Below, piece by piece: positions 12,059 through 62,593 of a stretch of 64,000 nucleotides of DNA (position 1 is its first letter; each line of letters opens with the position of its first letter). The stretch lies in contig JBJLBX010000013.1 in the NCBI GenBank assembly GCA_045567955.1, positions 2,226 to 66,225 of the forward strand, given 5' to 3'. The notes under the pieces were generated by a model, which did not search any database, was not told the origin of the DNA, and saw nothing but the letters and a program-made list of their open reading frames with translations. The position numbers and the translations under genes are program-made. The stretch comes from Candidatus Poseidoniales archaeon (GTDB taxonomy: Archaea; Thermoplasmatota; Poseidoniia; MGIII; CG-Epi1).

Positions 12059-12126
12059 TTAAATAATTTTATGGTGACTCCAATATAAACCAAAGGAGTT
12101 ATTTACTCATTTGTTTCAATGATATT

Positions 12127-13149: not shown

Positions 13150-13202
13150 TAAAATTGAAATAGTAAAAAAACGAATAGACTCAAGATTATGAAATGGGGA
13201 AT

Positions 13203-13577: not shown

Positions 13578-14044
13578 TAGTGCCAGCGATGATATGCAGG
13601 ATGTCCTTCTTTTACAGCAACAAATAGTCCCCTACCTGTTGCACAGGTTTTTCCATCAGCTTTTAATTCAATAATTACTTCAGCTCTATCATTTTGCAAA
13701 CCTAATACTCTGCTTTTTAGAATAAGTTTAGGACCAAATGGAGTAGGCCTTTTCAATTTTACTTCATACTGAGCAGTTACAGTGCATTGAGGTTCATCAA
13801 ATCCATTTTTGTCCATTATTGCGATCGCAGCAGTCCAGTTTCCATGGCAATCAATTAGCGAACCTATTATTCCACCATTTATGACTCCAGGAAATGCTTG
13901 GTGTTTTTCTTCACATTCAAATTCCATTTCTAGTCCATCATCTATTCTATAAGATTTAATTTGTAAACCTTCTTTATTCGATGGTCCACAACCAAAACAG
14001 ATAGAATTAGGTGCATATTTATCTTGTACAGCCTTGTTACTCAT
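13577..14044 (-). CDS. hotdog-fold (PaaI-type) thioesterase
   Basis: 155 aa. N-terminal CFGCGPSNKEGLQI and the hotdog-core pattern GVINGGIIGSLIDCHG. Confidence 0.65.
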   Translation of the reverse strand: MSNKAVQDKYAPNSICFGCGPSNKEGLQIKSYRIDDGLEMEFECEEKHQAFPGVINGGIIGSLIDCHGNWTAAIAIMDKNGFDEPQCTVTAQYEVKLKRPTPFGPKLILKSRVLGLQNDRAEVIIELKADGKTCATGRGLFVAVKEGHPAYHRWH

Positions 14045-15747: not shown

Positions 15748-15781
15748 TAAACACTATAGCCGGCACTATATTTTAGTCTAT

Positions 15782-34412: not shown

Positions 34413-37070
34413 TTAATTCCTTGCAGGATTCGGTGTGTCTGGGTCAATATCTAAGCTTTTTAAGGCTGCTTTAGCTTTTGCTTCAGATAATTCACCTTCA
34501 GTTAGAAGAGTGCTTATTGTTGCTGCAACAATATATTGAGAATCAATTTCAAAGAATTTTCTTAAGTTCTCTCTCGTGTCACTCCTTCCAAATCCATCAG
34601 TTCCTAGAGATACATATTTTCCAGGTATCCATTTTTGGATCATATCAGGGACTGCCTTTACATGGTCTGTAGAGGCAATTGTAACCAACTTTTTTGTCAT
34701 CACTTTTGAGATATAGGGTATTTTTTGTTTTTTCGTAGGATTCAACAAGTTCCATCGCTCACATTCAACTGCATCTCTTCGTAAACCTCCAAAACTTGTA
34801 GCACTCCATACTTCAGTTTTAATATCTAATTTTTCCAACATTTTTTGTGCTAACAAAACCTGTTGCATTATTGATCCACTGCCAATTAGTCGAGCTTTTG
34901 GTTTTGATGCATTTTTGAACTTGTAAATTCCCTTGATGATGCCTTCTTCACAATCCTTTGGTATTGCTGGCATTTGATAGTTTTCATTGTATAAAGTAAG
35001 ATAATATAGTAAATCTTCATTATTATCATACATTCTTCTTAATCCTTCCTTAATAATAACTCCAATTTCATAAGCAAAGGCGGCATCATATGATATACAA
35101 TTTGGGACTGTATCTGCTACTAACAAGCTATGACCGTCTTGATGTTGTAACCCTTCACCGTTTAGAGTAGTTCTTCCAGCAGTAGCTCCCAATAGGAAAC
35201 CTTTTGCTCTTGAATCTGCAGCACACCATATTTGATCACCAACACGCTGGAATCCAAACATTGAATAATAGATATAGAATGGTATTGTTGGTTTACCTAT
35301 TGTGGAATAAGCCATTCCTGCGGCTGTAAAGCTACTCATAGCTCCAGCTTCTGAAATCCCTTCCTCTAATATTTGGCCATTTTTTGCTTCTTTATAACTT
35401 AGTAATAATTTTGAATCTACAGGTGTATATGTTTGTCCTTGAGAAGTATATATTTTGAATTCAGTGAATAAGGCTTCCATTCCAAAGGTTCTTGCTTCGT
35501 CGGGAACAATAGGAACAATTAAGTCACCAATTTGTTCATCCTTCATCAAGTTTCTAAGTAGTCTTACAAATGCCATCGTCGTTGAAACTTCTTGTTCTTT
35601 AGGAGTTCCTTTATCGAATTCAGAAAACACTTGATTTGTAGGCATTTGGAATCCACTGTATGTTGCATTACGTTTTGGCAGAGGTCCTCCAAGTTTTTCT
35701 CTTTGGTGCTTTAAATATTTAATTTCAGGACTATCTGCAGCAGGTTTGTAATATGGCATATCTTCTAACTCAGAATCAGTGAATGGAATTTCTAGTAGAT
35801 CTCTAAAGTATTGCCAATCAGATTTATCTAAACCTTTCTTTTGGTGAGTCATATTTCGAGCTTCAAATGCTTTTCCTAGGGACCAACCCTTAACTGTTTT
35901 AGCTAGTATAACAGTAGGTTGATTTTTATGGTTAATAGCTTCATTATATGCTGCAAATAATTTTGTTGAGTCGTGGCCACCTCTCCTTAATCTAGCTAAA
36001 GTATTATCGTCTAAGTCTTCAACTAATTTCTGTAATTCAGGTTCAGGGCCAAAGAAATTTTGTCTAATATAGTCGCCTGAGGATGCAGCAAGATTTTGGT
36101 AGTCACCATCAACGGTTTTCTCCATTTTCTTTAATAAATGACCCATCTCATCCTTTTGTAATAATGGATCCCAATCTTTACCCCATAATACTTTTAGAAC
36201 ATTCCATCCAGAACCTCTAAAGATAGCCTCAAGTTCTTGTATGATTTTTCCATTTCCTCTAACAGGTCCGTCTAATCTCTGCAAGTTACAATTTATTACG
36301 AAGGTAAGATTATCTAATTTTTCACGATGAGCTAAATGAAGTGCATGCAAAGTTTCAGGTTCATCACACTCTCCGTCACCCAAAAAAGCCCAAACTCGGC
36401 TATTTGAGGTGTCACAAATACCTCTTTCATGTGCGTATCTTAGAAATCTAGCATGATAAATTGCATTAGTTGGTCCTAATCCCATTGATACAGTAGGAAA
36501 TTCCCAGAAATCGGGCATAAGTCTAGGATGTGGATAGCTTGATAGTCCATCATCAAAAGATTCTCTTCTGAAGTGGTCAAGTTGTTCTTCGCTTAATCTC
36601 CCTTCAATAAATGCTCTTGAATAGATTCCAGGTGAAGCATGTCCTTGAAAATAGATAAAGTCACCTAATCCATTGTCTTTTCCTTTAAAAAAATGCTGAA
36701 AACCGACTTCATAAAGGCTAGACGCAGAAGCGTATGTAGAGATATGACCGCCAAGACCTGCGAAATTTTTATTGGCTTTTGAAACCATCATAGCAGCATT
36801 CCACCTAATCATCCTTCTTATTTTCTTTTCTAGTATTTCATCACCAGGATATTCAGGTTCTGATTCAGGTGGAATTGTATTTACATAAGGACTGTTTGTA
36901 AGCAAGGGTATTGCGATATTTCGGTCCCGAGCTTCTCTGATTAAAGTTTGTAAAAGGTATCTAGCTCTTTCATCACCTTTCAAGTCGATTATAGAGGCTA
37001 TAGAATCAATCCATTCCTCAGTTTCCTGGGGATCTCTGTCTGGCAATTGTTGACGATATCCTTTTTTCAT
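34413..37070 (-). CDS. aceE: homodimeric-type 2-oxoacid (pyruvate) dehydrogenase E1 component
   Basis: 885 aa, co-linear with recalled E. coli AceE (YVNTIPPESEPEYPGDEILEKKIRRMIRWNAAMMV vs [35 protein letters not shown]). ThDP motif GDGECDEPE...NLQRLDGPV. Confidence 0.9.
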   Translation of the reverse strand: MKKGYRQQLPDRDPQETEEWIDSIASIIDLKGDERARYLLQTLIREARDRNIAIPLLTNSPYVNTIPPESEPEYPGDEILEKKIRRMIRWNAAMMVSKANKNFAGLGGHISTYASASSLYEVGFQHFFKGKDNGLGDFIYFQGHASPGIYSRAFIEGRLSEEQLDHFRRESFDDGLSSYPHPRLMPDFWEFPTVSMGLGPTNAIYHARFLRYAHERGICDTSNSRVWAFLGDGECDEPETLHALHLAHREKLDNLTFVINCNLQRLDGPVRGNGKIIQELEAIFRGSGWNVLKVLWGKDWDPLLQKDEMGHLLKKMEKTVDGDYQNLAASSGDYIRQNFFGPEPELQKLVEDLDDNTLARLRRGGHDSTKLFAAYNEAINHKNQPTVILAKTVKGWSLGKAFEARNMTHQKKGLDKSDWQYFRDLLEIPFTDSELEDMPYYKPAADSPEIKYLKHQREKLGGPLPKRNATYSGFQMPTNQVFSEFDKGTPKEQEVSTTMAFVRLLRNLMKDEQIGDLIVPIVPDEARTFGMEALFTEFKIYTSQGQTYTPVDSKLLLSYKEAKNGQILEEGISEAGAMSSFTAAGMAYSTIGKPTIPFYIYYSMFGFQRVGDQIWCAADSRAKGFLLGATAGRTTLNGEGLQHQDGHSLLVADTVPNCISYDAAFAYEIGVIIKEGLRRMYDNNEDLLYYLTLYNENYQMPAIPKDCEEGIIKGIYKFKNASKPKARLIGSGSIMQQVLLAQKMLEKLDIKTEVWSATSFGGLRRDAVECERWNLLNPTKKQKIPYISKVMTKKLVTIASTDHVKAVPDMIQKWIPGKYVSLGTDGFGRSDTRENLRKFFEIDSQYIVAATISTLLTEGELSEAKAKAALKSLDIDPDTPNPARN

Positions 37071-49746: not shown

Positions 49747-49868
49747 TATTCACCTTTTTCAGGACTTTAGCAGAAAGATAGGTGTAGTTATTGTTTATCA
49801 TATTTTTTTTGCATATATTTTGGACATTAGCCCGAACTCTTTTAATAGGGTTTTGCAACAGGGTAGAT

Positions 49869-50228
49869 GTGCTTGGACATGAGTACGTTCCCATAGGGAT
49901 TTTTGCGCTAATTGCGTTATCATTTCCTATAATGACATTTTTTATCGGAAGGTTCTTCCGACCGCATAATGATAATTCTCTCAAAAATTCAACTTATGAG
50001 TGTGGAGAGGTTCCAATGGGTGAGGCACATATTCAATTTCATTTCCAATATTATATGTTTGCAATTTTATTCTTAGTATTTGATTTAGTTGTAGTGTTTC
50101 TGATTCTTTGGGTACAAGTTTACCTTCAGTTAGCAATTGCCGCAAAAGTAGTAATGATGTTATTTCTGCTTTTAACTCTTCTAGGTTTGTGGTATGCGTT
50201 CAAGAAAGAGGATGTCATCTGGATATGA
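49869..50228 (+). CDS. nuoA: complex I subunit NuoA
   Basis: YECGEVPMGEAHIQFHFQYYMFAILFLVFDLVVVFL is the NuoA signature. I prefer the in-frame GTG at 49869 (119 aa) because the longer TTG-49791 ORF would include an A/T-rich promoter-like stretch. The start remains uncertain. Confidence 0.85.
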   Translation: MLGHEYVPIGIFALIALSFPIMTFFIGRFFRPHNDNSLKNSTYECGEVPMGEAHIQFHFQYYMFAILFLVFDLVVVFLILWVQVYLQLAIAAKVVMMLFLLLTLLGLWYAFKKEDVIWI

Positions 50229-50866
50229 GCTCAAAAAAGGTACGTGGTAATCCTAGCCTTAGGAAAGGAATTGGTTCTAAAACGACTGATTCAGATAAGA
50301 TAATGGAGGATCCTCCTGCAGGTGATTGGCTGGCTTTGCGATCAGATCAACTTTTGAAGTGGATTGATGATTCAGTATATAATGTGGCAGAAAGCACTGG
50401 TGTTCGTGAAGTAGTAGATAGAATTACTAGGCCAATTTTCAATTTTGCTCAAAGATTATCGCCCCACCCTTTACATTTTGGGATTATGTGTTGTGCAATT
50501 GAAATGGGTCAGGCTTCAGCCCCAGATCATGATATTGATAGGCTAGGTTTAGTTTATCGTTCTTCTCCACGTCAGTGTGATGTTTTGATAGTTAATGGTC
50601 CTGTTTGTGAAAAACTAAGGCCAAAATTGAAGACATTATATGAGCAAATGCCGGAACCTAAATGGGTTATTGCTATGGGTGAATGCGCTATTTCTGGAGG
50701 GCCGTATTGGGATTCTTATTCAGTGGTAGCTGGTGCTGATACTTTTATGCCAGTTGATGTCTACATACCAGGTTGTCCTGTTAGGCCAGAGGCTTTGATG
50801 CATGGATTTTTAACTTTACAGAAGAAAATTAGGGCTAAAGAGCCAGGTATGTTCCTTAGGAGATAA
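50225..50866 (+). CDS. nuoB: complex I subunit NuoB
   Basis: N2-cluster cysteines in GIMCCAIEM, GECAISGGPY and IPGCPVRPE. The ATG at 50225 overlaps the nuoA stop (ATGA). Confidence 0.9.
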   Translation: MSSKKVRGNPSLRKGIGSKTTDSDKIMEDPPAGDWLALRSDQLLKWIDDSVYNVAESTGVREVVDRITRPIFNFAQRLSPHPLHFGIMCCAIEMGQASAPDHDIDRLGLVYRSSPRQCDVLIVNGPVCEKLRPKLKTLYEQMPEPKWVIAMGECAISGGPYWDSYSVVAGADTFMPVDVYIPGCPVRPEALMHGFLTLQKKIRAKEPGMFLRR

Positions 50867-50869
50867 TAG

Positions 50870-51343
50870 ATGAATATTGATGAATTCATGCAGAAACTCT
50901 CGGCTTCTAAAGGAGTTTCTAATATTTCTAAAATAAGAGAGAATGTAGTGAAATTGGATTTGAGTAGAGAAGATTCTCAAGAGTTTTTTATTGGGATAAA
51001 GTCAGATTTTGAACATTGCTCATTGATAAGTGCTATTGATAATCAACCAGATTTTGAATTAGTTTACCATTTCTCTTGTATTAACAATTCAATTGTTGTT
51101 GAAGACAGCGATTATGCCGTTATGTTAGAGGCTCATGTTTATTTGAAGAGAGAATCGCCAAGCATTGATTCAATTTCAAATATTTGGTTTGGGGCAAATT
51201 GGCATGAAAGAGAAGCTTTTGATTTAATGGGTATCTATTTCATTGGACATCCAGATTTACGTAGAGTTCTTTTGCCGGAAGGGTTTGCAGGCCATCCACT
51301 CAGAAAAGATTATGTGTATGAAATACACGAGGAGGAGTGGTAA
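50870..51343 (+). CDS. nuoC: complex I subunit NuoC
   Basis: 157 aa. [32 protein letters not shown] signature. Confidence 0.9.
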
Positions 51344-52437
51344 TGGCTGAAATGTGGATTAGTATGGGTCCTCAACATCCTATGACTCATGGGCTTTGGA
51401 CTCTTAAGGTAAAAGTAGATGGTGAAACAATTGTTGATGCAGATCCTGAGTTAGGTTATCTTCATCGTTCAGTTGAAAAAATGGGGGAAAGAAGAAAGTA
51501 TTTCATGAATACTACGTTGACTGATAGGTTGTGCTATGCTAGTGCAACAACTTGGACTCATTGTTATACACATTCTGTTGAAGAATTAATGCATGTAGAA
51601 GTCCCAGTTCGTGCACAATATATTCGTACAATAATGTTAGAATTACAGAGATTGGCTTCACACCTTATGTGGGCTGGTGCTTACATGCCTGATTTAGGAC
51701 ATATTACGGGAGCTCTTTATTTCTGGAGAGATCGTGAATTATTTTTGAATCTTTTAGAACTTCCTAGTGGTAGTCGTTTACTTTATAATTATGTTAGAAT
51801 TGGTGGAGTTAAGAGAGATTTACCAGTAGGTTTTGAGGATAAAACTGAAAGAATACTTAAATTATTTGAACAAAGACTTGATGAATACGCAGATCTTTTT
51901 GAGAATTCAAAAATTTTTAGAATGCGTACCGATGATGTAGGTAAATTTACAGCAGATCAAGCAAAGAATTTAGGAATTACGGGTCCAAATCTAAGAGGTT
52001 GTGGAACAAAATTCGATTTGAGAAAGCATGATACTTATGAGATATATGAGGAAATAGATTGGGATATTTCTACTAGAGAAGCTGGACCTGGCTATAGTGA
52101 TTGTTTCAGTAGATATATGGTTAGAATAGATGAAATGAAAGAGTCTGTTCGCATTATAAGGGATTGTTTTAAGAAAATGCCAGCAGGACCTACTATGGCT
52201 TCTAATGTTCCAGTTAGAGCTCAAGGTGAAGCTTTCCGGAGAACTGAAGATTCAAGAGGCGAAGCAATGATGTATGTAGTTGGTGATGGTTCTGACAGGC
52301 CATATCGGTGGAAAATTAAGAGTCCTATGTTTACTACAATTTCAGCATGTCCACATTATCTTAAAGGTTACAAATTAGCTGATGTTCCTGCAATAATGGG
52401 AAGTATTGATATTTGTATAGGAGAGACTGACAAATGA
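51343..52437 (+). CDS. nuoD: complex I subunit NuoD
   Basis: MGPQHPMTHGLWTL, LGYLHRSVEK and a C-terminal IDICIGETDK. ATG at 51343 (TAATG with the nuoC stop) is preferred over GTG at 51337. Confidence 0.9.
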   Translation: MAEMWISMGPQHPMTHGLWTLKVKVDGETIVDADPELGYLHRSVEKMGERRKYFMNTTLTDRLCYASATTWTHCYTHSVEELMHVEVPVRAQYIRTIMLELQRLASHLMWAGAYMPDLGHITGALYFWRDRELFLNLLELPSGSRLLYNYVRIGGVKRDLPVGFEDKTERILKLFEQRLDEYADLFENSKIFRMRTDDVGKFTADQAKNLGITGPNLRGCGTKFDLRKHDTYEIYEEIDWDISTREAGPGYSDCFSRYMVRIDEMKESVRIIRDCFKKMPAGPTMASNVPVRAQGEAFRRTEDSRGEAMMYVVGDGSDRPYRWKIKSPMFTTISACPHYLKGYKLADVPAIMGSIDICIGETDK

Positions 52438-53666
52438 GTTTGTTTTCAGTATGTCGTTCAATGGCTGAGTGGACGGCTACAAATCTACTTATTCCTGTTT
52501 TTAATTTTCAGGCAGGTTTATTTCCGCCGTTTAGTAATCCGGCAGGTTCTATTGCTGATTGGTTAGAGACGGATGGTGGTCTAAACACATTAGCTTGGGC
52601 CTATGCTGTGAATATAGCATTTATGGTAGGTATGACTAATCTAATTTTGGTTATTCATTTAGAAAGGAAAATAGCAGCCCGTATACAGGATCGTAGAGGT
52701 CCTATGTTATCTTTAAGATCATTTAGAGAATTAGGTGAAGATTTAGCAGGTGAAAAGCCTACTTGGAAATTTAAGGATAATTACAGTGGAATTGGTATAG
52801 TTCAGAATATAGTAGATGGGATTAAGGCTATAACAAAAGAATTAATTGTACCTGCTAAAGCCGATCGTTTTTTATTTACAATGGGTCCTGTAATTTTTAT
52901 TTCTTCTTCAGTATTTTTGTTGGTATTATTTCCTTTATCTGATAGATTTGCAGCTTCTTCAGCTCCAGCTGGTCTGATGGTAATTATGGCTGCTTTTTCT
53001 ATAGCTCCTATAGGTGTTTTGACTTCTGGTTGGGCCTCTAATAATAAATATTCAATGATTGGAGGAATGAGATCAGCAGCTCAGTTGATGTCTTATGAAA
53101 TACCACTATTGTTGAGTATGGCTGGAGTCTTTCTTTTGGCTGGTTCATTTGATCCTGTAACGATTGTAGAACAACAGCAAGAAGGTACTTGGTTTTTTGG
53201 TTTACCAATGTGGAATTTTATTCCTCAGTTCATTGGTTTTGTTGTTTTTATGATTTGTATTCTTGCTGAAGTTGAAAGAGTTCCATTTGATTTACCTGAA
53301 GCTGAAGCTGAATTAGTTGAGGGGTGGACTACTGAATACAGTGGTATTCGTTTCATGTTCTTTCTGATGGCAGAATATATTCGAGGTTTTGCAGGTGCTG
53401 CAGTGGCTACAATATTATTCTTGGGAGGTTGGGCAGGTCCTTGGCCAGTTCCTCCAGAAATCTGGTTTTTAATAAAAGTATATTTAATAATAATATTTTG
53501 GATATTTATTAGATGGTCAGTTCCAAGAATACGTACTGATCAAATTCTAGAGCTTGGCTGGAAAAAATTATTACCTCTCTCATTAATTAATATCTTAATT
53601 GTAATATTTATGGTAGAAATATATCCTTATTTCTCAGATATAGTTAACTTGCCGGAGGTATTCTAA
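52434..53666 (+). CDS. nuoH: complex I subunit NuoH (with N-terminal extension and loop insertion)
   Basis: ERKIAARIQDRRGP...GIVQNIVDGIKAITKE, EVERVPFDLPEAEAELVEG and TEYSG motifs. 410 aa. Confidence 0.9.
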   Translation: MSLFSVCRSMAEWTATNLLIPVFNFQAGLFPPFSNPAGSIADWLETDGGLNTLAWAYAVNIAFMVGMTNLILVIHLERKIAARIQDRRGPMLSLRSFRELGEDLAGEKPTWKFKDNYSGIGIVQNIVDGIKAITKELIVPAKADRFLFTMGPVIFISSSVFLLVLFPLSDRFAASSAPAGLMVIMAAFSIAPIGVLTSGWASNNKYSMIGGMRSAAQLMSYEIPLLLSMAGVFLLAGSFDPVTIVEQQQEGTWFFGLPMWNFIPQFIGFVVFMICILAEVERVPFDLPEAEAELVEGWTTEYSGIRFMFFLMAEYIRGFAGAAVATILFLGGWAGPWPVPPEIWFLIKVYLIIIFWIFIRWSVPRIRTDQILELGWKKLLPLSLINILIVIFMVEIYPYFSDIVNLPEVF

Positions 53667-53667
53667 T

Positions 53668-54444
53668 ATGAGTAACGAAAGAGAACCGGGTTTGATGGAT
53701 ATTTTTGTAAATCCTATGAAAGTTACACTAAAACAATTTTTCAAGTCAACATTTGGTAAACCAACAACAGTTATGTATCCTCTTGAAAGAAGAGATCCAC
53801 CTCCAACTTATAGAGGAATGAATGCAGTAATTTGGGATTTATGTATTGGTTGTGGTATTTGTGGTGAAGTATGTCCTAATAAATGTCTAAAAATGAAACC
53901 AGAAGATTTATCTGAAGAAGAGCAAGATAGAGCTTGGTATGGTTCACATTTAGCAAAGAGGAAGAGTAAGGCTGAAAGGCCAGCTATCAATTTTGGGCAT
54001 TGTATGTTTTGTGGTTTTTGTGAAGATTATTGTCCTACTGGGGCTATGACTATGACGGATTTTTATGAGTTAGCAGATACTAACCGTGAAGGCTTAATTT
54101 ATCCTGCAAGGTCTATGAAAGTAGAATTAGAAGAATTACCACAGTTGCCTCTTACAAATTATATGATGGAATCTCCTGTTCTTGATGCAGATCCATGTAT
54201 TGGGTGCAGTAAGTGTGTAGATAATTGTCCAACAAATTGTATCATTATGGACTTGGGCCCTCAGAACAAAAAATTGAAGAGTGGTAAAACTAGAAATGTA
54301 GAAAACCCTTATTTCGATTATACCATTTGTATTGGCTGCTCAACATGTGTCAAAGTATGTCCTGCAGACTGTCTCCATATGGAACCAATTAGTAATTCAA
54401 GTTCTAGTGGATTAACAACTGAAGAAACTACGCAGGAGGCCTAG
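53668..54444 (+). CDS. nuoI: complex I subunit NuoI fused to a second 2x[4Fe-4S] ferredoxin domain
   Basis: Four CxxCxxCxxxCP motifs: CIGCGICGEVCP, CMFCGFCEDYCP, CIGCSKCVDNCP and CIGCSTCVKVCP. 258 aa. Confidence 0.85.
   Translation: MSNEREPGLMDIFVNPMKVTLKQFFKSTFGKPTTVMYPLERRDPPPTYRGMNAVIWDLCIGCGICGEVCPNKCLKMKPEDLSEEEQDRAWYGSHLAKRKSKAERPAINFGHCMFCGFCEDYCPTGAMTMTDFYELADTNREGLIYPARSMKVELEELPQLPLTNYMMESPVLDADPCIGCSKCVDNCPTNCIIMDLGPQNKKLKSGKTRNVENPYFDYTICIGCSTCVKVCPADCLHMEPISNSSSSGLTTEETTQEA
54115..54441 (+). other. extra C-terminal 2x[4Fe-4S] ferredoxin-like domain of NuoI
   Basis: Residues ~150-258 lie beyond the canonical NuoI core and contain the 3rd and 4th CxxCxxCxxxCP motifs. Confidence 0.7.
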
Positions 54445-54446
54445 TT

Positions 54447-54710
54447 GTGGATTTAGTTTTAGTGATTTTTTGGTTTCTAGCATCATTAATCCTTGCTTCT
54501 GCATGGGCTGTTGTTAATGGTAATGATATTGTACATTCAGTAGTATGGTTAGCAACTGTTTTTCTTTTGACGGCGTGTTTGTTTATTATTGCAGATGCTG
54601 AATTCTTAGCAGTTATACAAGTACTTGTGTATGTTGGTGCAATATCTGTAGTTATTATCTTTGGAATTATGTTGACTAAAAGAACATTGAAGGGTGGTGA
54701 GGATGTCTAG
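54447..54710 (+). CDS. nuoJ: complex I subunit NuoJ, N-terminal part (TM1-3)
   Basis: 87 aa, GTG start. AEFLAVIQVLVYVGAISVVIIFGIML corresponds to the conserved NuoJ TM3. Confidence 0.8.
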   Translation: MDLVLVIFWFLASLILASAWAVVNGNDIVHSVVWLATVFLLTACLFIIADAEFLAVIQVLVYVGAISVVIIFGIMLTKRTLKGGEDV

Positions 54711-55518
54711 TAGAAGTACAATTTGGGTTAGAGATGCCTTAGTTATAACATTTTCATTTTATGTTGTTTTTTCACTTGCTTTAGCTCCTTGGAATAATTT
54801 AGAACTTGATTCACATAATTCGGGTATTTGTAGTGACGGTTGTGCACCTTCTATAGTTTTTCCAGACGATGATTATTATCATTATACAAATTCTATTGAA
54901 TTTGAATGGGCTCCAGTTTCAGTAAGTTATATGCATATTGTAGTAGATGATGACAATGGTGAAACAATATTTCAAGGTAATATTACAACTAATGAATCTC
55001 AAACACCTAGATTACCTCCAGGTAACTATACTTCTAGAATTTACTATGCTGGTATGGGTGGGAGTTCTTTAGGAGATAATATTGTAGATATGCCTTTACT
55101 ACTTACAGAAGAACAATCTACAGTTACAGCTTCTAAACTTTCAGTAGTTTGGCCAACTGTAAGTGTAACTTATGGTTTAATGATAAATATTAATGAGCAA
55201 GTAAGTGCTGATAAATATGATACAGTTTATTTGGATTCATTCACTTTAGTTCATCAAGTAGATGGATTAGTGGATACAAAATATACATATTCCGATTTTA
55301 TTAGCGGAGAAACTTATTCTTGGACAGTTTATGCAATTGATTCAGAAGGTTTTATTTCAGAATTCTCAGATGTTAGGGATGTAAATATAGACACTACTAA
55401 ATTTTTGGCTTATGAATTGTTTAATGATTGGGAAGTTCCATTTATTTTGCTAGGTGTTTTAATGGTAATAGCATTACAAGCTGGTGTTTTCTTAGCTAGG
55501 GAGGAGCGAGATGATTGA
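54694..55518 (+). CDS. nuoJ: complex I subunit NuoJ, C-terminal part (TM4-TM5) with ~200-aa inserted extracytoplasmic domain
   Basis: The C-terminus LFNDWEVPFILLGVLMVIALQAGVFLAREERDD matches recalled E. coli NuoJ LFGPYVLAVELASMLLLAGLVVAFHVGREER. Between TM4 and TM5 lie two related ~85-aa repeats. The start may be the ATG at 54703. Confidence 0.75.
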   Translation: MVRMSSRSTIWVRDALVITFSFYVVFSLALAPWNNLELDSHNSGICSDGCAPSIVFPDDDYYHYTNSIEFEWAPVSVSYMHIVVDDDNGETIFQGNITTNESQTPRLPPGNYTSRIYYAGMGGSSLGDNIVDMPLLLTEEQSTVTASKLSVVWPTVSVTYGLMININEQVSADKYDTVYLDSFTLVHQVDGLVDTKYTYSDFISGETYSWTVYAIDSEGFISEFSDVRDVNIDTTKFLAYELFNDWEVPFILLGVLMVIALQAGVFLAREERDD

Positions 55519-55813
55519 TCCTATTAATTTTGTAGTGTTTTCTTCAATATTATTATTGATTGGAGCTTATGGTGTGATTCGGAATAAGAATGCTATTGTT
55601 GTTTTGATGTCTGTAGAAATTATGCTCACAGCTGCAAACATAAATTTTGTAGCCTTTTCAACTTTTTATAATGTTTTATCAGGTCAAATAGTAGTACTTT
55701 TTGTAACTACTATTGCGGCAGCAGAGGTTGCTATAGGTTTAGCGATATTATTAAGTTTATTTAAACAAAGAGGCACAATTGAGTTGGATTTACTCAATAA
55801 GTTGAGGTGGTAA
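55511..55813 (+). CDS. nuoK: complex I subunit NuoK
   Basis: 100 aa with 3 TM helices. LIGAYGVIRNKNAIVVLMSVEIMLTAANINFVAFS signature. Confidence 0.9.
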   Translation: MIDPINFVVFSSILLLIGAYGVIRNKNAIVVLMSVEIMLTAANINFVAFSTFYNVLSGQIVVLFVTTIAAAEVAIGLAILLSLFKQRGTIELDLLNKLRW

Positions 55814-55943
55814 TATAAGTAGTAAGGATAATAATTCAGATTCGGATATTGGTATAGTCTCCTTAGTAAGTATAGTTTTTGCTTTAATATTACTTTTTAT
55901 TTTCACAGATCAATTTTCTTCAGATTTTGTTAGTGTAGCTTGG

Positions 55944-57992
55944 ATGATACCCGTATTTCCTATAGTTTCATTTGCTTTAATTCTTTTATTTGGAATGTAT
56001 GATCCAAGAAGAGGTGGATATTTTGCTTTAGTTGGTGTTGGTCTTTCTTCAGTATTTTCTATAGCTGTTGTTTATGAGGTTCTAATTCTGGATTCATTAC
56101 ATGGTGGTTTTATTGAATCTACTCGGACATGGTTTGGTGGAGAAACATATTCTTTTGAGTTTGGTACATACATCGACAGTTTGGCTGCAATTTTATTATT
56201 GGTTGTTGGATTTGTTTCATATTTAGTAGTTTTATTTTCTACAAGTTACATGAATGAAGATGGTGATCGGCAAATTAGGTATTTTTCAGAAATTTGTTTG
56301 TTCGTAGGTGTAATGCTTGGTTTAGTTATTGCTAATTCTTTCTTATTGATGTTTATTTTCTGGGAGTTAGTTGGTGTTTGTTCTTATTTATTAATTGGAT
56401 TTTGGTATGAAAAACCATCTGCAGCTTCAGCAGCTAAGAAAGCATTTTTGGTAACACGTGTAGGAGATGTTTTCCTTTTATTAGGTTTAATCATCCTTTT
56501 CAATACTTTTGGTACACTTAGATATTCTGAATTATTCAATGACCCTGAACTATTGGCTGCTAATGCTACTGAAGTGAAATGGGCTACACTTTGTTTATTT
56601 GGTGGTGCTGTAGGTAAATCAGCTCAGTTTCCCTTGCATGTCTGGCTTCCTGATGCTATGGAAGGGCCAACTACAGTTTCAGCCTTGATTCATGCTGCAA
56701 CTATGGTCAAAGCAGGCGTTTTCTTAGTTGCTAGGGCTTATCCATTGATTGTTCACAGTCCTGATACGGCAATCTACATTGCAGTTACAGGTGGTGTGAC
56801 TGCATTCATTGCAGCGAGTATGGCAATGGTTATGAATGATATCAAACGAGTTTTAGCTTATTCAACAATTTCACAACTTGGTTATATGTTTTTGGCGCTT
56901 GGAACTGGGGCCTGGGCATTTTGGCATGCAACTGAAGAAGGTTTAGACATTCATGTCCAAGGATATACTGCAGGTTTATTCCATTTGATGAATCATGCTT
57001 TCTTCAAAGCTTTACTTTTCCTTGGTTCAGGTGCAGTTATACATTCAGTACATACTCAAGATATGAGAGAAATGGGTGGGTTGAGAAAATCTATGCCTGT
57101 TACTTCTTTGACAATGGGTCTTGGAGTATTATCTATTGCAGGTGTTCCTTTCTTCTCAGGTTTTTGGTCTAAAGATGAGATTTTAGAAGCAGTTCACCAT
57201 AATGGAGAAGCTGAAGGTATCTTTGGAGCACTCTGGTGGCTTGCTCTGTTGACAGCTGCAATGACTGCATTTTACATGACAAGGCTTTGGATGATGACAT
57301 TTAGTGGACCAGAAAAAAGGACAATTAGTGAGATGGAGCCATCTAAAGACCATGAAGAAACAGGTAACTGGGAATTATCTAAAAAGGACGTTAAAATACA
57401 TGCGCATGAAGCTCCATTAGTAATGACAATACCTCTTATGCTTTTAGCTTTTATGGCCGTATTTTCAGGATTTTTATTATTCATTGGTGATGGGTTTGGT
57501 TCAAGAATTTATTTTGGCCACCACGATAGCACTGAAGGTGTTATTCAGTGGGGAATTATTGATCATATTCTTTCGTCATCACTTACTTATTTATCAGTAG
57601 TTGTAGGCCTTACTGGAGTAATATTAGGATATTTATTTTACAAACGTAGTAGTAATGGTGAAACTATACTTTCAACATCTTCTATTTCAGAAAATATTGT
57701 TTTTGGTCCACTACATACTTTTCTTTCTAACAGATTGTATATGTCTAAATTATTTGATTGGTTTGGAATGAGAACTTGGGATACTTTTGCAAAAGCCTGT
57801 GACTGGTTTGATAGAAACATTATTGACGGTATGGTAAATGGGACGGCATACATTACTCAAATTTTTAGTAGCAGAATTAGAAAGTTAAACTCTGGTTTTA
57901 CAGGTCATTATGCTTCTTTGACAGTTGGTGGTCTTGGTGCTATAGTGCTGCTTACTAGAGTTATAATGCCAATAATGGGGTGGTCAATTTGA
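55944..57992 (+). CDS. nuoL: complex I subunit NuoL
   Basis: 682 aa. FIFWELVGVCSYLLIGFWY and WLPDAMEGPTTVSALIHAATMVKAGVF motifs, with a long C-terminal extension (lateral helix region). Confidence 0.9.
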   Translation: MIPVFPIVSFALILLFGMYDPRRGGYFALVGVGLSSVFSIAVVYEVLILDSLHGGFIESTRTWFGGETYSFEFGTYIDSLAAILLLVVGFVSYLVVLFSTSYMNEDGDRQIRYFSEICLFVGVMLGLVIANSFLLMFIFWELVGVCSYLLIGFWYEKPSAASAAKKAFLVTRVGDVFLLLGLIILFNTFGTLRYSELFNDPELLAANATEVKWATLCLFGGAVGKSAQFPLHVWLPDAMEGPTTVSALIHAATMVKAGVFLVARAYPLIVHSPDTAIYIAVTGGVTAFIAASMAMVMNDIKRVLAYSTISQLGYMFLALGTGAWAFWHATEEGLDIHVQGYTAGLFHLMNHAFFKALLFLGSGAVIHSVHTQDMREMGGLRKSMPVTSLTMGLGVLSIAGVPFFSGFWSKDEILEAVHHNGEAEGIFGALWWLALLTAAMTAFYMTRLWMMTFSGPEKRTISEMEPSKDHEETGNWELSKKDVKIHAHEAPLVMTIPLMLLAFMAVFSGFLLFIGDGFGSRIYFGHHDSTEGVIQWGIIDHILSSSLTYLSVVVGLTGVILGYLFYKRSSNGETILSTSSISENIVFGPLHTFLSNRLYMSKLFDWFGMRTWDTFAKACDWFDRNIIDGMVNGTAYITQIFSSRIRKLNSGFTGHYASLTVGGLGAIVLLTRVIMPIMGWSI

Positions 57993-58354
57993 ATAAGTTT
58001 TTGGGAATTTTTGCTTTAGTAGGATTATTTATCTTATTTTCAGGTAGTGCTAATGCTGAAAATCATACAGTAATTGTCACTCAGGCTGATGATTTTTCTT
58101 CTTATTACTTTGAACCTAATGTTTTAGAAATAGAAGTTGGTGATAATGTACTATTTGTCTGGGGTAATGGCTCTCATAATGTGGCGCAAGTTTCAGATTC
58201 AGACTCTAATGATTATAATCTTGGTTTCTATTCAGGAGCTTCACAAGAAGGAGGTAATTGGTCGCTTCCATCTGAGTTCACTTCACAGGATGGAACTTTG
58301 TATTATGTTTGTGAACCTCATGCTACAATGAATATGCGTGGTTCAATAATAGTG
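57980..58354 (+). other. signal peptide-like segment + plastocyanin/halocyanin-like blue-copper domain
   Basis: FLGIFALVGLFILFSGSANA|EN, then a beta-rich ~100 aa with His (WGNGSHNVAQV) and the C-x2-H-x4-M ligand set (VCEPHATMNM). Confidence 0.75.
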
Positions 58355-59869
58355 GGTTCTGGATCATTACCGCTTCCTGAGATTTCTATGGAGTTTAGTG
58401 ATTTTCCTTGGTTATCATATCTTTTAGTATTTCCTCTCATTGGAGCTCTTTGGTCCATTAGCTTTAGTAACACACCTAACGCACCTCGATTGATTGCTTT
58501 ATTCACTACTTTGTTTACTTTAGTTATATCTATAATTGTTTTCATGAAAACGGGGTCAAAATCAGGTTATAGTTTGATGGAAGAATATGAATGGGCACCA
58601 AATTTAGGTATATCATTATTATTTGGTGTGGACGGTTTGAGTTCTCCACTGATCTTATTGACGGGAATAATAGGTCCTTTAACCGTTATTTTTGCATGGG
58701 AAGAAAAAGAAAAGCCAGGTCTTTTCTTTAGTTTACTTTTAGTTATGCAAACTGCACTTTATGGTGTATTTGTCACACTTGATTATTTTGTCTTTTATGT
58801 ATTTTGGGAAATTGTTTTGATACCTATGTTTTTCCTAATTGCAATATGGGGTGGAGAGAATAGAAGATACGCTTCAATTAAATTTTTCATTTATACTTTT
58901 ACAGCTTCAGTAATTATGCTAGTAGGTTTTATGGCTCTATATTTTGAATCTGGAGCTAATTCTTTTTCAATGATTGACATTGCGAATAGCAACAGAGAAT
59001 TTACAGAAGATTTCCAGATTTGGGTTTTTGCTGCATTGTTTATAGGTTTTGCAGTTAAGATACCTTCATTTCCATGGCACACTTGGCTGCCAGATGCACA
59101 TGTTCAAGCTCCAACAGCAGGATCTATTTTATTGGCTGGTGTGATGCTTAAAATGGGACTTTATGGACTTATTAGAGCAGCATTACCTGCATTACCTTTG
59201 GGAGCTATTTATTTTGTCCCAATTATGGTGATTTTAGCAGTTATTTCTATTCTTTACGGTGCAGCTTTAAGTTTAGGGCAAACTGATTTGAAAAAGTTGG
59301 TAGCTTATTCTAGTGTTTCTCATATGGGGGTTGCATTACTTGGTGTTGCTACAATGACGGAGTTAGGTTTGGCTGGTGCCGTATTCATGATGTTTGCTCA
59401 TGGAATTTTGAGTCCTGCAATGTTTATGATTGCTGGAGTTTTACTCCATCAAGTAGGAACAAGAGAAATTCCTAAATTAGGTGGATTAGCAAGACATCAA
59501 CCAAGAACTACGGGTATTTTTGTTGTAATTTTTATGGGAAGTCTTGGCTTACCAGGAATGGCGGTTTTTGTAGCTGAATTAGCTGTATTCATAGCTTTCT
59601 TTCAATCTCATGGTTACTGGCTTTTATTGCCTATTTTTGGTATGGTTTTAACAGCAGGTTATCATCTTTGGGCATTGCAGAGAGCAATTTTTGGAAAAGA
59701 CAGTGAAGAAATAGAAATAGGTAAGGTTCATGAGGCTCCATGGTATGAATTCTATCCTATGTTTACAATAATAATAATTGCAGCATTATTCGGTATCTTT
59801 CCACATTATTTGATGGATCCGATTAATACTGCCTGCTATGATATTTTGAATTTTATGGGAGTACTCTAA
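57980..59869 (+). CDS. nuoM: cupredoxin (type-1 copper) domain fused to complex I subunit NuoM
   Basis: A continuous 629-aa ORF: signal-like N-terminus, a cupredoxin ligand pattern (GSHNV ... YYVCEPHATMNMRG), then a full NuoM (GVDGLSSPLILLTG, WLPDAHVQAPTAGSILLAGVMLKMGLYG). Confidence 0.85.
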   Translation: MVNLNKFLGIFALVGLFILFSGSANAENHTVIVTQADDFSSYYFEPNVLEIEVGDNVLFVWGNGSHNVAQVSDSDSNDYNLGFYSGASQEGGNWSLPSEFTSQDGTLYYVCEPHATMNMRGSIIVGSGSLPLPEISMEFSDFPWLSYLLVFPLIGALWSISFSNTPNAPRLIALFTTLFTLVISIIVFMKTGSKSGYSLMEEYEWAPNLGISLLFGVDGLSSPLILLTGIIGPLTVIFAWEEKEKPGLFFSLLLVMQTALYGVFVTLDYFVFYVFWEIVLIPMFFLIAIWGGENRRYASIKFFIYTFTASVIMLVGFMALYFESGANSFSMIDIANSNREFTEDFQIWVFAALFIGFAVKIPSFPWHTWLPDAHVQAPTAGSILLAGVMLKMGLYGLIRAALPALPLGAIYFVPIMVILAVISILYGAALSLGQTDLKKLVAYSSVSHMGVALLGVATMTELGLAGAVFMMFAHGILSPAMFMIAGVLLHQVGTREIPKLGGLARHQPRTTGIFVVIFMGSLGLPGMAVFVAELAVFIAFFQSHGYWLLLPIFGMVLTAGYHLWALQRAIFGKDSEEIEIGKVHEAPWYEFYPMFTIIIIAALFGIFPHYLMDPINTACYDILNFMGVL

Positions 59870-61362
59870 TGGAACCATCCAGTTTGTTTTTGCCTGAAAT
59901 AGTGCTTGTTGCCAGCATAATGACTATACCTGGTTTGTATATGCTGACTGGAACTAAAAAATCGTTTGCCTTGTGTTCTAATTTGACACTTGCTAGTATT
60001 TTGTTATTCCTAATTATTTCATGGTTTGATCCAGATACTTTATCAATGGAAAATGAAGTTTCAATATTCTTACTATATGGCCATTTCAAAATAGATGTTT
60101 TCTCTCAAATCTTTAAGATTATGTTTGTTCTTGTGGCTCTTGTAGTATCTTTGATAAGTAGCTCTTATTTTGATGAGGATGAGCCCCATCAAGCAGAATA
60201 CTATACTTTATTATTATCAAGTACATTAGGAATGCTAGTTGTAGCTTCAGCTAATGATTTCCTAACACTTTTCTTGGGTATTGAAATTTCAGCATTTAGT
60301 AGCTATGCTCTTGTTGCTTTCAGAAAGCAGGATGATAACTCTGCTGAAGCTGGAGCGAAGTATCTCTTGATTGGTGCTTTTTCTTCTGGTTTAACTCTTT
60401 ATGGAATATCTTTACTTTATGCAGTTACTGGATCATTAACTTTTGATGGAGTTCACTCATTTATTGATGGCATATCTCAAGGAGTTGTAGATGGTAATTT
60501 TAATGAAGTTATATTCATATCAAGTTTATTCATAATTGCTGGTCTTGGTTTTAAAATAGCTGTAGTTCCTTTCCATGCTTGGGCTCCTGATGTTTATCAG
60601 GGTGCTCCAACACCTGTAACAACGTTATTGGCAGCAGCAAGTAAAGGAATGGGATTCATTGCAATATTTAGAGTATTTTCATTTACTTTGGAATCAGTAT
60701 CTGATGAGTGGAAATTAGTTTTGGGCCTTATTGCTTTGGCTTCTATGACTCTTGGTAATTTAGCTGCAATATCACAGGAAGATATTGGTCGGATGTTAGC
60801 TTATTCTTCTATTGCACAGGCAGGATATATTATGATTGCAATACCTGCTATGACCGATGATGCTATGTCTGGAGCTATCGCACATACTTTGATTCATGCA
60901 TTTATGAAAGGTGGTGCCTTTGTTGTAGTAGCTGGTCTGGGTGCTGTTGGTTTAGGTTACAGTCTTGATTCTTACAAGGGTTTGGCACAACGTTCACAGT
61001 TACTGGCTCTTTCTATGACAGTTTGTCTTCTTTCGTTAGTAGGTATTCCGCCGTTTGCAGGTTTTATCAGTAAATTCTTATTATTTTATGGTACACTTCA
61101 GGCAGGTTTATCTGGAGAAACCTGGATTATAGCTTTAGTAATTGCAGGTGTACTTAATTCTGCATTATCACTGTATTATTATCTTAAGATAATAAGATAT
61201 ATGTATCTGCACGAACCTGTGGAAGATAAAGAAGTAGTATTTTCTAATTCCATAAGGTATGTTTCATTAGTAACAATATTATTATTGGGAGTTATTTTCC
61301 CATTATATTGGCAATCTCTCTTTGAAATTTGTAAGGAGGCTTCAACAGCCTTAATGGGATGA
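59869..61362 (+). CDS. nuoN: complex I subunit NuoN
   Basis: 497 aa, 14-TM antiporter-like. FHAWAPDVYQGAPTPVTTLLAAASKGMGF signature. TAATG-coupled to nuoM. Confidence 0.9.
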   Translation: MEPSSLFLPEIVLVASIMTIPGLYMLTGTKKSFALCSNLTLASILLFLIISWFDPDTLSMENEVSIFLLYGHFKIDVFSQIFKIMFVLVALVVSLISSSYFDEDEPHQAEYYTLLLSSTLGMLVVASANDFLTLFLGIEISAFSSYALVAFRKQDDNSAEAGAKYLLIGAFSSGLTLYGISLLYAVTGSLTFDGVHSFIDGISQGVVDGNFNEVIFISSLFIIAGLGFKIAVVPFHAWAPDVYQGAPTPVTTLLAAASKGMGFIAIFRVFSFTLESVSDEWKLVLGLIALASMTLGNLAAISQEDIGRMLAYSSIAQAGYIMIAIPAMTDDAMSGAIAHTLIHAFMKGGAFVVVAGLGAVGLGYSLDSYKGLAQRSQLLALSMTVCLLSLVGIPPFAGFISKFLLFYGTLQAGLSGETWIIALVIAGVLNSALSLYYYLKIIRYMYLHEPVEDKEVVFSNSIRYVSLVTILLLGVIFPLYWQSLFEICKEASTALMG

Positions 61363-61619
61363 TTGATAAAAAAAGTGCAACATATTTACAGTTTGAGAAA
61401 TTGTGGGATGGTATTACTCCCAAAGGCAAGAATCATTCTAAAAAGGATACTTTTAGATCTCGAATGAAAAATTCATGTCAGCAGGAAGGTTTGGAATTTA
61501 GTAAAATTAATTCATATTTTATATTTTCAGGTGACAGTAAGAAATTAGATTCAGATACACGAATGGATGGTGACGTCAAAATATCTAAACCACCTAGACG
61601 TCATTTAAGAAAATTTTAG
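61359..61619 (+). CDS. hypothetical basic soluble protein, translationally coupled to nuoN
   Basis: 86-aa ORF with an ATGA overlap with the nuoN stop. No TM helices and no family motif. Its 3' end overlaps the convergent idsA-like gene by 4 nt. Confidence 0.4.
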   Translation: MIDKKSATYLQFEKLWDGITPKGKNHSKKDTFRSRMKNSCQQEGLEFSKINSYFIFSGDSKKLDSDTRMDGDVKISKPPRRHLRKF

Positions 61620-62593
61620 TATTTATCGGTAGCAATCAGTTCACTAGCAAATGAGAGTGGTACTTGTTCTAATAATTTTTTGGAAGCTGAATCTGGAACT
61701 TTTTCTAGAAATTTCATTGCCATGTCTTGCCAAGGTTGAATTAAACTCTCAAATACCTCTTGAGCGTGTCTGATTTCTACATTTTCAATTAATTTTTCAG
61801 AGTTTCCGTTAAAGATAAACTCGTTTACCATTTTTTGGTATTGTGGATAATTGCTCAGTTTTGTTAAAGGTAGAGTTGGTATTTTCAGAGCTAAATCACC
61901 AACTGGTGTTTTTGTTAACAAAGAATTTCTTAAGTCCAGGAAGTCATCAGCTATTTGGTACAAAATACCGACACACTCACCATATTTATACATGTCAAGA
62001 GCAAGATCAGTTCTTGGAGAAACTAAGGTACCTAATTCAGCAGCAGTACTATAGAGTGCACCAGTTTTTCTTTTAATTCTATCTAGGTATACGGCCTCAG
62101 TATAATTTTTTTTATCTGTAAAGTCAGCAATAGCACCTTCTGATAATTTTCTAGCACATCTTGCTAGTGTTTTTCCTGTAGCTAATGAGACTGCACCATG
62201 TAATGAGCCTGTTGCAACCATTAAATCAGCAACTAATACTGAAGTTCTTGGCCCGAGTTCATTCCATAATGCTGGCGCAGATCTCCTAAATTTATCTCCA
62301 TCTATCCAGTCATCATGTATTAACGCACCACAGTGAACCAATTCTAGAGCCATACTACATTCAAAAGCTAAATGTGTATCTCCTCCTAAAGCATCTGAAA
62401 CCAATCTACATAATACAGGTCTTAGTCGTTTACCACCTTTTAGACCTTTTTCAAGAAGTCTAGCAACTTCTTGAGGTTCTTTAGAAATTTCTCTTCTTAA
62501 GTGATCATTAAATTCATTTTTGACTAGGTTATAGTAATTCCTTAATTCATCAGAAATAGTCAATATAGTTTTAATTTCTTCCTTCTGTTCCAT
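61616..62593 (-). CDS. idsA: trans-polyprenyl diphosphate synthase (GGPP synthase-like)
   Basis: First Asp-rich motif LIHDDWIDGD and second Asp-rich motif IADDFLD. 325 aa. Confidence 0.85.
   Translation of the reverse strand: MEQKEEIKTILTISDELRNYYNLVKNEFNDHLRREISKEPQEVARLLEKGLKGGKRLRPVLCRLVSDALGGDTHLAFECSMALELVHCGALIHDDWIDGDKFRRSAPALWNELGPRTSVLVADLMVATGSLHGAVSLATGKTLARCARKLSEGAIADFTDKKNYTEAVYLDRIKRKTGALYSTAAELGTLVSPRTDLALDMYKYGECVGILYQIADDFLDLRNSLLTKTPVGDLALKIPTLPLTKLSNYPQYQKMVNEFIFNGNSEKLIENVEIRHAQEVFESLIQPWQDMAMKFLEKVPDSASKKLLEQVPLSFASELIATDKY

Follow-up and report, generated by a model that had tools for sequence, protein, structure and literature searches.

The 64-kb window analysed here (the whole stretch of archaeal DNA; all coordinates are positions within it, position 1 being its first letter) carries a remodelled complex I operon between 49.8 and 61.6 kb, where the open reading frame (ORF) listing and Pfam place 13 same-direction, mostly overlapping genes on the plus strand. 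The operon is a member of the 11-subunit complex I-like quinone reductase family (Nuo/Fpo-like/NDH-1 core) and is not a canonical 14-subunit NADH dehydrogenase. We give a slightly better than even chance to the reading that it encodes a quinone reductase without NuoEFG, from a low-GC epipelagic-type Marine Group III (MGIII) archaeon, with an extended iron-sulfur (Fe-S) input and a copper domain on its outer side. A previous inspection of the DNA (the sequence-only reading) had claimed a lineage-specific remodelling of an 11-subunit complex I lacking NuoEFG, and this remodelling is found conserved in all complete MGIII operons examined. The additions lie on the cytoplasmic arm (an extra 2x[4Fe-4S] domain of NuoI, an insert in the loop between transmembrane helices 1 and 2 (TM1-2) of NuoH, an N-terminal extension of NuoB) and on the outer face of the membrane arm (a cupredoxin on NuoM, two FN3 domains on NuoJ2, an N-terminal extension of NuoH), as the claim of changes on both arms had it.

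All 11 subunits (NuoA, B, C, D, H, I, J, K, L, M and N) score above the Pfam gathering cut-off within one gene string, and the ORF listing agrees with the claimed order nuoA-B-C-D-H-I-J1-J2-K-L-M-N followed by a coupled 86-aa ORF (ORF86). Two ORFs have no Pfam match of their own, a 274-aa ORF between J1 and K (J2) and ORF86 after N. The junctions had been read correctly, with ATGA overlaps at A/B, D/H and N/ORF86 and TAATG at C/D and M/N; further gene pairs overlap at J1/J2, J2/K and L/M. The 11 core subunits look catalytically intact, judged by the N2 cysteines, the quinone-site motifs of NuoD and the presence of three antiporter-like subunits. No NuoE, NuoF, NuoG, FpoF or GltD-like gene was found by Pfam among all ORFs of at least 130 aa in the window, which extends the claimed absence of nuoE/F/G from the operon to the full 64 kb.

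Relatives were scanned with one genome per GTDB species, giving approximately 28 MGIII-type loci (L001-L027 and L029), one intermediate locus (L028) and approximately 50 Marine Group II (MGII) loci. The closest named homologues of the window proteins belong to Marine Group III euryarchaeote CG-Epi2, and the G+C content of the window (31-37%) is similar to that of the MGIII loci. Each add-on is present in every MGIII locus with a complete gene, and approximately 22 related species have a complete operon.

The NuoM cupredoxin and the outer face of the membrane arm

The features of the outer face are as follows.

57980-59869, plus strand: nuoM, 629 aa; signal peptide, cupredoxin and antiporter-like core (PF00127, PF00361)
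58058-58354, plus strand: exported plastocyanin-type (type-1 copper) domain of NuoM, aa 27-125
54447-54710, plus strand: nuoJ1, 87 aa; N-terminal part of NuoJ, PF00499 profile positions 1-62
54703-55518, plus strand: nuoJ2, 271-274 aa; two TM helices around an extracellular insert
54862-55389, plus strand: two tandem FN3-like domains in the extracellular TM4-TM5 loop of NuoJ2 (AlphaFold2 (AF2), Foldseek)
55815-57992, plus strand: nuoL; PF00662 and PF00361, including a 43-codon N-terminal extra TM helix

An external cupredoxin on NuoM had been claimed, and it is borne out by a match to the Copper-bind family (PF00127, 34.5 bits against a cut-off of 21.2, residues 42-125) ahead of PF00361, by a Sec-type signal peptide (aa 1-26) with a conserved cleavage site (A-x-A followed by E(D/N)HT), and by four invariant copper ligands. 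Plastocyanins are the best PDB matches (E = 1e-6), with the copper ligands aligned. A type-1 copper site was recognised by the ligand set His...Cys-x2-His-x4-Met with plastocyanin spacing; the NuoM domain has this set, and His/Cys/His/Met do not vary in 21 MGIII sequences (H(NV), C-[EQ]-P-H and a Met at +8). The domain is acidic (one K+R, 17 D+E), as is typical for exported domains, and is joined to TM1 by a linker of only about 10-15 residues, so it must stay near the membrane surface. The arrangement of signal peptide, cupredoxin and antiporter core recurs in more than 75 clusters of NuoM homologues from independent assemblies. From its motifs, the domain is predicted to bind copper and to transfer electrons. 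In the literature searched here and below, which covers some but not all journals, we found no report of a cupredoxin or plastocyanin fused to NuoM or to another antiporter-like subunit of complex I, and nothing relevant in published descriptions of MGIII complex I.

In the reading favoured here, the cupredoxin would be a tethered blue-copper carrier or a docking site between a Rieske/cytochrome-b complex and a terminal oxidase, in a supercomplex built on the membrane arm of complex I, with the FN3 pair of NuoJ2 perhaps acting as a protein-protein scaffold. Poseidoniia have been proposed to use blue-copper carriers in electron transport without a canonical bc1 complex (PMC9723583, PMC6336850). 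MGII have cytochrome b and Rieske proteins but the canonical bc1 is absent, and an orphan RnfB is present (PMC6336850); their halocyanin and plastocyanin genes are highly transcribed (PMC9723583), and MGIII are inferred heme auxotrophs (bioRxiv 10.1101/2021.01.11.426183). Against these published findings, a tethered carrier or docking site would be the simplest account of the domain. The cupredoxin-NuoM fusion would then imply an unusual supercomplex, or a new way of anchoring an electron carrier, in an inferred heme auxotroph.

The external tandem-repeat insertion claimed for NuoJ was identified as two FN3-like domains in J2. NuoJ is split into NuoJ1, which presumably comprises TM1-3, and NuoJ2, whose homologues start at MSSRS and whose start in the window is most likely ATG 54703. 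The AF2 model of NuoJ2 (mean pLDDT (AF2 model confidence) 72) has helices at residues 7-30 and 247-273 and two beta-sandwiches, with blocks at 81-89 in both; the C-terminal end of the L028 J2 protein matches PF00499 positions 103-146. All top 40 Foldseek matches are tandem FN3 pairs (probability 0.9-1.0), with low TM-scores owing to the inter-domain angle. PF00041 is recorded for some NuoJ2 homologues, the window protein itself having no Pfam match. The acidic insert of approximately 200 residues (seven K+R, 32 D+E) is placed outside the cell by the invariant Cys46/Cys50, the N-x-T/S sequons and the charge distribution. More than 120 clusters from independent assemblies have this architecture, and the literature searched holds no report of FN3 domains in NuoJ.

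The N-terminal TM helix of NuoL is an add-on that was missing from the earlier list. The supposed 130-nt gap between nuoK and nuoL (55814-55943) is open and in frame with nuoL, whose first ATG is at 55944, and it codes for the extra helix; in nearly all MGIII relatives nuoL starts 42-54 codons upstream. The homologous start codon is ATA in the window (55815-55817), ATT in L001 and ATG in L022 and L026, which may reflect either near-cognate initiation or a recent loss of the helix. Between the window and L001, the two genomes without the ATG, the ratio of nonsynonymous to synonymous substitution rates (dN/dS) of the helix is 0.56.

NuoI, NuoH and ORF86 on the cytoplasmic arm

The features concerned are the following.

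53668-54444, plus strand: nuoI, 258 aa; four Fer4 stretches, four [4Fe-4S] motifs
54160-54441, plus strand: extra C-terminal 2x[4Fe-4S] polyferredoxin-like domain of NuoI (approximately aa 165-258)
52434-53666, plus strand: nuoH, 410 aa; PF00146 at 9e-99; outward N-terminal extension and loop insertion
52704-52787, plus strand: NuoH loop segment aa 91-118 holding the 24-aa insertion (alignment to NdhA)
61359-61619, plus strand: ORF86, small basic protein, pI 9.9; ATGA overlap with nuoN

The ferredoxin domain of NuoI is indeed doubled: the motif CxxCxxCxxxC occurs four times (residues 59, 112, 177 and 221), and all 16 cluster cysteines are invariant. The second domain, with Fer4_9 and Fer4_16 matches at residues 177-235, is conserved in all MGIII loci. 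The N-terminal half of the protein aligns with NuoI/NdhI and a P. furiosus MBS subunit, and the C-terminal half aligns with the polyferredoxin repeats of MvhB, FwdF and RnfB. We propose that the enzyme works as a proton-pumping donor:quinone oxidoreductase in which the extra domain would extend the Fe-S wire past N6a/N6b to an exposed entry point. Electrons would then run from the extra NuoI clusters to N6a/N6b, N2 and quinone. In place of NADH oxidised through NuoF, the donor may be ferredoxin in its reduced form or a dehydrogenase encoded separately. The altered arm is probably built or made stable with the help of ORF86, the NuoB extension and the loop insert of NuoH.

Relatives carry dehydrogenase modules at the same part of NuoI. 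The NuoI of a sister lineage with high GC (59.5%) has 719 aa and is 64% identical to the window NuoI over the shared part; its extra ferredoxin domain is interrupted between Cys motifs 3 and 4 by a Fer4_20 plus Pyr_redox_2 module. The inserted module is of the GltD/NfnB/SudA type, a NAD(P)H-oxidising iron-sulfur flavoprotein (FAD/NAD(P)H); it is present on 14 contigs from independent samples in nuo operons that are otherwise collinear, and it has the look of an NAD(P)H input module built into an 11-subunit complex I. When the GltD-like insert was compared by tblastn with the window and every locus, L028 was the sole match. The fusions are listed here.

L028, 3923-6082; L086 and L087, 10001-12160; L088, 2112-4271: GltD-inserted NuoI of the high-GC lineage
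L084, 3162-4856: after nuoBCDH, NuoI with extra Fer4 motifs fused to an FrhB/FpoF-type F420 module
L085, 5036-6826: in an Mbh-like cluster (antiporter-H-B-C-D), a NuoI-like protein fused to a GltD-type module

Dehydrogenases have thus repeatedly become joined to NuoI on its C-terminal side. These fusions are the strongest evidence at hand for reading the extra 2x[4Fe-4S] domain as an electron-entry adaptor, and they suggest that it is not an inert appendage. The claim of an altered electron input is supported to this extent, by the NAD(P)H/F420H2-type modules that relatives have fused to the same NuoI region. Four-cluster NuoI proteins and GltD-type modules within NuoI had no description in the literature searched.

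NuoH has an insertion in the TM1-TM2 loop, just ahead of the amphipathic helix at the quinone entry; the loop is basic and therefore cytoplasmic. The spacing from GP90 to G119 is 28 residues compared with four in cyanobacterial NdhA, so that the insertion, claimed to be about 24 aa, is exactly 24 aa relative to NdhA. Every MGIII locus keeps the spacing of 28 residues, whereas L028 has 21. The N-terminal extension of NuoH also exists and is acidic; its claimed length of about 50 aa applies only to the comparison with mitochondrial ND1, being approximately 25 aa against NdhA and approximately 40 aa against E. coli NuoH.

The extra coupled ORF claimed after nuoN is present as ORF86 in 26 loci including L028, with 24 positions invariant among 23 sequences. 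Pfam gave no match for it, and a PDB search with a profile of the 23 sequences gave no hit at E <= 10, NdhS, NdhV and NdhO included. From its position and conservation it is a candidate accessory subunit or assembly factor.

ORF86 bears on a different account, in which the complex would be no more than a ferredoxin:quinone oxidoreductase like photosynthetic NDH-1 or the Fpo of Methanothrix: the second ferredoxin domain of NuoI would serve only as a docking surface for ferredoxin, a part played elsewhere by NdhS/NdhV, ORF86 would be an NdhS analogue, and the outer domains would be unrelated to electron flow (serving, e.g., cell-envelope contacts or copper handling). We regard this account as doubtful. 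Three points agree with such an enzyme: NuoH and NuoI have their best structural relatives in NdhA, NdhI and the MBS subunit of P. furiosus; ORF86 is a small and strongly basic protein whose gene is coupled to the operon; and ferredoxin is a widely proposed donor for 11-subunit complexes (PMC4153887; bioRxiv 10.1101/2024.07.04.601786). Against this, ORF86 has no detectable similarity to solved structures, NdhS among them, and its model is unreliable; the sister lineage carries a NAD(P)H-type flavoprotein at the NuoI port rather than a ferredoxin docking site; and the pyruvate dehydrogenase E1 encoded in the window makes NADH, which would still have to be reoxidised somewhere.

Distribution, selection and the competing readings

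The add-ons are not sporadic; comparison of the operon across relatives showed that they co-occur in every complete MGIII operon. The further claim of a simultaneous, co-evolved set did not survive this comparison: the distributions are nested, which indicates that the add-ons accumulated stepwise, and co-occurrence inside one clade is expected from shared descent alone. MGII operons also lack NuoEFG, have a split NuoJ and carry a larger insert (approximately 70 aa) in the same TM1-2 loop of NuoH. Their NuoI has two Cys motifs only, approximately 123 residues apart, with an acidic cysteine-free insert of approximately 80 aa between them; J2 is plain (approximately 90 aa) and NuoM has no cupredoxin. 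Examples of the MGII NuoI and NuoH inserts, typical of L030-L079, are at L047:5656-6633 and L047:4070-5644, respectively. The NuoN protein of MGII is approximately 560-585 aa in length, compared with 497 aa in the window. A tblastn search of the cupredoxin domain against the MGII loci and L028 gave no matches; aa 37-610 of an MGII protein in L077 match NuoM and were rejected as a cupredoxin on the same search. The gene after nuoN in MGII was likewise rejected as a counterpart of ORF86, since its sequence looks like aIF1A and is unrelated.

The high-GC sister lineage (L028 and L086-L088) shares the four-cluster NuoI, an FN3-bearing J2 (three FN3 repeats, 385 aa) and ORF86, and it lacks the cupredoxin and the NuoL extension. 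Among the lineages compared, only the low-GC MGIII clade has the cupredoxin-NuoM fusion, and the NuoL helix is probably also specific to it. Four-cluster NuoI is found more widely: further archaeal operons of the 11-subunit kind (L080, L082) have it, as do a few dozen clusters at 50% identity. The L080 operon (11890-16389) has three NuoM/N-like genes after NuoL, as in the '2M' complex I, which has one antiporter-like subunit more.

Selection was estimated by codon comparison of the window with its three closest relatives, giving these dN/dS values.

Extra ferredoxin domain of NuoI: 0.02-0.07 (neighbouring core 0.01-0.02)
Cupredoxin of NuoM: 0.09-0.12 (neighbouring core 0.04-0.05)
ORF86: 0.03-0.13
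FN3 pair of NuoJ2: 0.18-0.31
NuoL N-terminal helix: 0.26-0.56 (neighbouring core 0.05-0.06)
NuoH loop segment: 0.02-0.32

The add-ons are under purifying selection. These data also bear on whether the unusual genes are artefacts of misassembly, frameshift or wrong gene calls, such as a cupredoxin gene run into nuoM or a hypothetical gene misread as half of NuoJ. Public annotation does list NuoJ2 and ORF86 as 'hypothetical protein', and in one MGIII genome the NuoM call begins at a Met within the protein, which gives 493 aa and leaves out the cupredoxin. We consider an artefact extremely improbable, and effectively refuted, because uninterrupted ORFs recur in approximately 26 species-level genomes and more than 75 protein clusters, single-cell genomes included, and because purifying selection at the codon level runs across the domain junctions; the exact window proteins also occur on up to 22 other contigs. 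The public labels of J2 and ORF86 and the cupredoxin-less NuoM call are simply incomplete.

A more serious alternative is that the additions are structural accretions, either stabilising or fixed by constructive neutral evolution, which open no new redox route, NuoM being a mere anchor for a cupredoxin. This we hold to be unlikely, though far from negligible. It would fit the nested and stepwise distribution, the different non-redox inserts that MGII carries at the same NuoI and NuoH-loop sites, the fast evolution of the FN3 pair and the NuoL helix (dN/dS up to 0.3-0.56), and the decay of the nuoL start codon to ATA or ATT in two genomes. It accounts poorly for both redox domains, where the copper ligands and the 16 cluster cysteines are invariant and dN/dS is 0.02-0.12, which indicates that the cofactor sites are maintained, and the repeated fusion of dehydrogenases at the same NuoI region argues for a functional electron port.

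Several points weigh against the reading of a NuoEFG-less quinone reductase with an extended Fe-S input and an outer copper domain. To our knowledge the membrane arm of complex I has no redox cofactor, and direct electron transfer between complex I and the cupredoxin is therefore excluded; the functional link between the two may be purely positional. The short linker of NuoM does not allow a freely swinging carrier, and partner complexes would have to assemble around NuoM. The FN3 domains of NuoJ2 are only 46-56% identical within the clade and evolve fast, as a loosely constrained decoration would. The four-cluster NuoI of L080 and L082 has no obvious partner, and the extra domain could therefore be merely structural. 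The AF2 model of ORF86 has a pLDDT of 53, and a separate NuoEFG, FpoF or GltD-like module may be encoded elsewhere in the genome, the search having covered the 64-kb window.

We also put forward, tentatively and as an unlikely extension of the favoured reading, that in epipelagic MGIII a respirasome based on copper and free of cytochrome c may be organised around the membrane arm as its physical hub, and that the extra NuoI ferredoxin domain may be a universal socket for interchangeable dehydrogenase modules (GltD-type in the deep, high-GC sister clade, FpoF-type elsewhere, a free donor here). If true, complex I would have a previously unrecognised modular wiring at both ends.

Core genes, neighbours and comparison with known systems

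The remaining genes of the operon are listed below.

49869-50228, plus strand: nuoA; PF00507 at 5e-25; ORF open from TTG 49791, likely start GTG 49869
50225-50866, plus strand: nuoB; PF01058; N2-cluster cysteines; MGIII-specific basic N-terminal extension of approximately 30 aa
50870-51343, plus strand: nuoC; PF00329 at 1e-34
51337-52437, plus strand: nuoD; PF00346 at 7e-84; quinone-reductase type
55511-55813, plus strand: nuoK; PF00420 at 2e-25
59869-61362, plus strand: nuoN; PF00361 at 7e-72; 497 aa

In several relatives the nuoA ORF begins at a GTG equivalent to 49869 (VLGHEY). GTG 49869, rather than TTG 49791, is most likely the start of nuoA, and the first 26 codons of the listed ORF (49791-49868) are probably untranslated. 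With a start at 49869, nuoA is separated from panB by 122 nt of A/T-rich sequence, a divergent promoter region. NuoB keeps the N2-cluster cysteines (motifs CCAIEM, GECAISGG and PGCP); its N-terminal extension, visible in the alignment against MGII, had not been listed among the elaborations. NuoD keeps GPQHPMTHG and the tyrosine of DRLCY, and the NiFe CxxC motifs are absent by motif check.

A polyprenyl synthetase gene on the minus strand (61616-62593) is convergent with ORF86, the two sharing 4 nt. L082, an archaeal operon unrelated to this one, also has a polyprenyl synthetase gene directly after nuoN, next to genes for a UbiE-type methyltransferase and a geranylgeranyl reductase. The two neighbourhoods suggest a recurrent link of nuo to the synthesis of quinone/isoprenoid side chains. 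The other window genes are housekeeping genes (tRNA synthetases, thermosome, TFB, proteasome, pyruvate dehydrogenase E1 and others). The E1 gene (34413-37070, minus strand) encodes a bacterial-type, homodimeric AceE-like enzyme (PDH_E1_M at 5e-91) in an archaeal genome, which implies NADH-producing pyruvate oxidation although the complex I has no NADH module. Two large proteins are otherwise unannotated: an 800-aa protein with a C-terminal GreA/GreB-like domain (15782-18184, minus strand) and a 1041-aa protein with a dynein-type AAA_5 domain (18285-21410, plus strand).

Among known systems, the archaeal 11-subunit Fpo-like/Nuo enzymes (Methanomassiliicoccales, Methanothrix, Thermoplasmatota, haloarchaea) have the same core genes in one operon, no NuoEFG or FpoF (in the present case, none within the 64 kb), and a split NuoJ; ferredoxin or a partner enzyme is the presumed donor, as here. 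Loss of the N-module and the split NuoJ are thus already known, FpoJ having been described as split in Methanomassiliicoccales (PMC4153887). To these features the window enzyme adds the four-cluster NuoI, the J2 FN3 pair, the NuoM cupredoxin, the NuoL TM helix and ORF86. The photosynthetic NDH-1 of cyanobacteria and chloroplasts also lacks the N-module. Among solved structures, NdhA scores best against the window NuoH, and NdhI is one of the top relatives of NuoI (the best being P. furiosus MBS subunit N). In NDH-1, ferredoxin entry at NdhI is aided by small lineage-specific hydrophilic subunits, whereas no NdhS, NdhV or NdhO homologue was detected for the window enzyme, whose extra entry element is a covalent 2x[4Fe-4S] domain on NuoI; its outward domains have no NDH-1 counterpart. 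With the canonical 14-subunit Nuo/Nqo it shares the Q-module and P-module subunits and their key motifs, and it differs in that NuoE, NuoF and NuoG are absent from the operon and the window.

MGIII and MGII are abundant uncultured heterotrophs of the ocean, and summaries of their respiratory chain usually speak of a 'canonical complex I'; papers on MGII term the enzyme 'canonical NADH dehydrogenase' (PMC6336850), which the MGIII operon does not support here. It encodes a non-canonical enzyme with no NADH module, a putatively extended Fe-S input wire, and outer domains that appear redox-capable and adhesive.

Electron carriers of the periplasmic side, normally mobile, are fixed to membrane complexes in several known cases, among them the cytochrome c domain of caa3 oxidases, the dihaem QcrC of actinobacterial III-IV supercomplexes and sulfocyanin in the Sulfolobus SoxM supercomplex, and carriers of this type imply short-range transfer inside a supercomplex. 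They are attached to the complex that reduces or oxidises them, whereas the NuoM cupredoxin sits on complex I, for which no redox site is known on that face. The NuoI-dehydrogenase fusions (L028, L086-L088, L085 and L084) have in common a NuoI core followed by additional 4Fe-4S motifs; the window NuoI has the ferredoxin adaptor only, without the flavoprotein module. The relatives with built-in NAD(P)H/F420-type modules offer testable candidates for what feeds an 11-subunit complex I.

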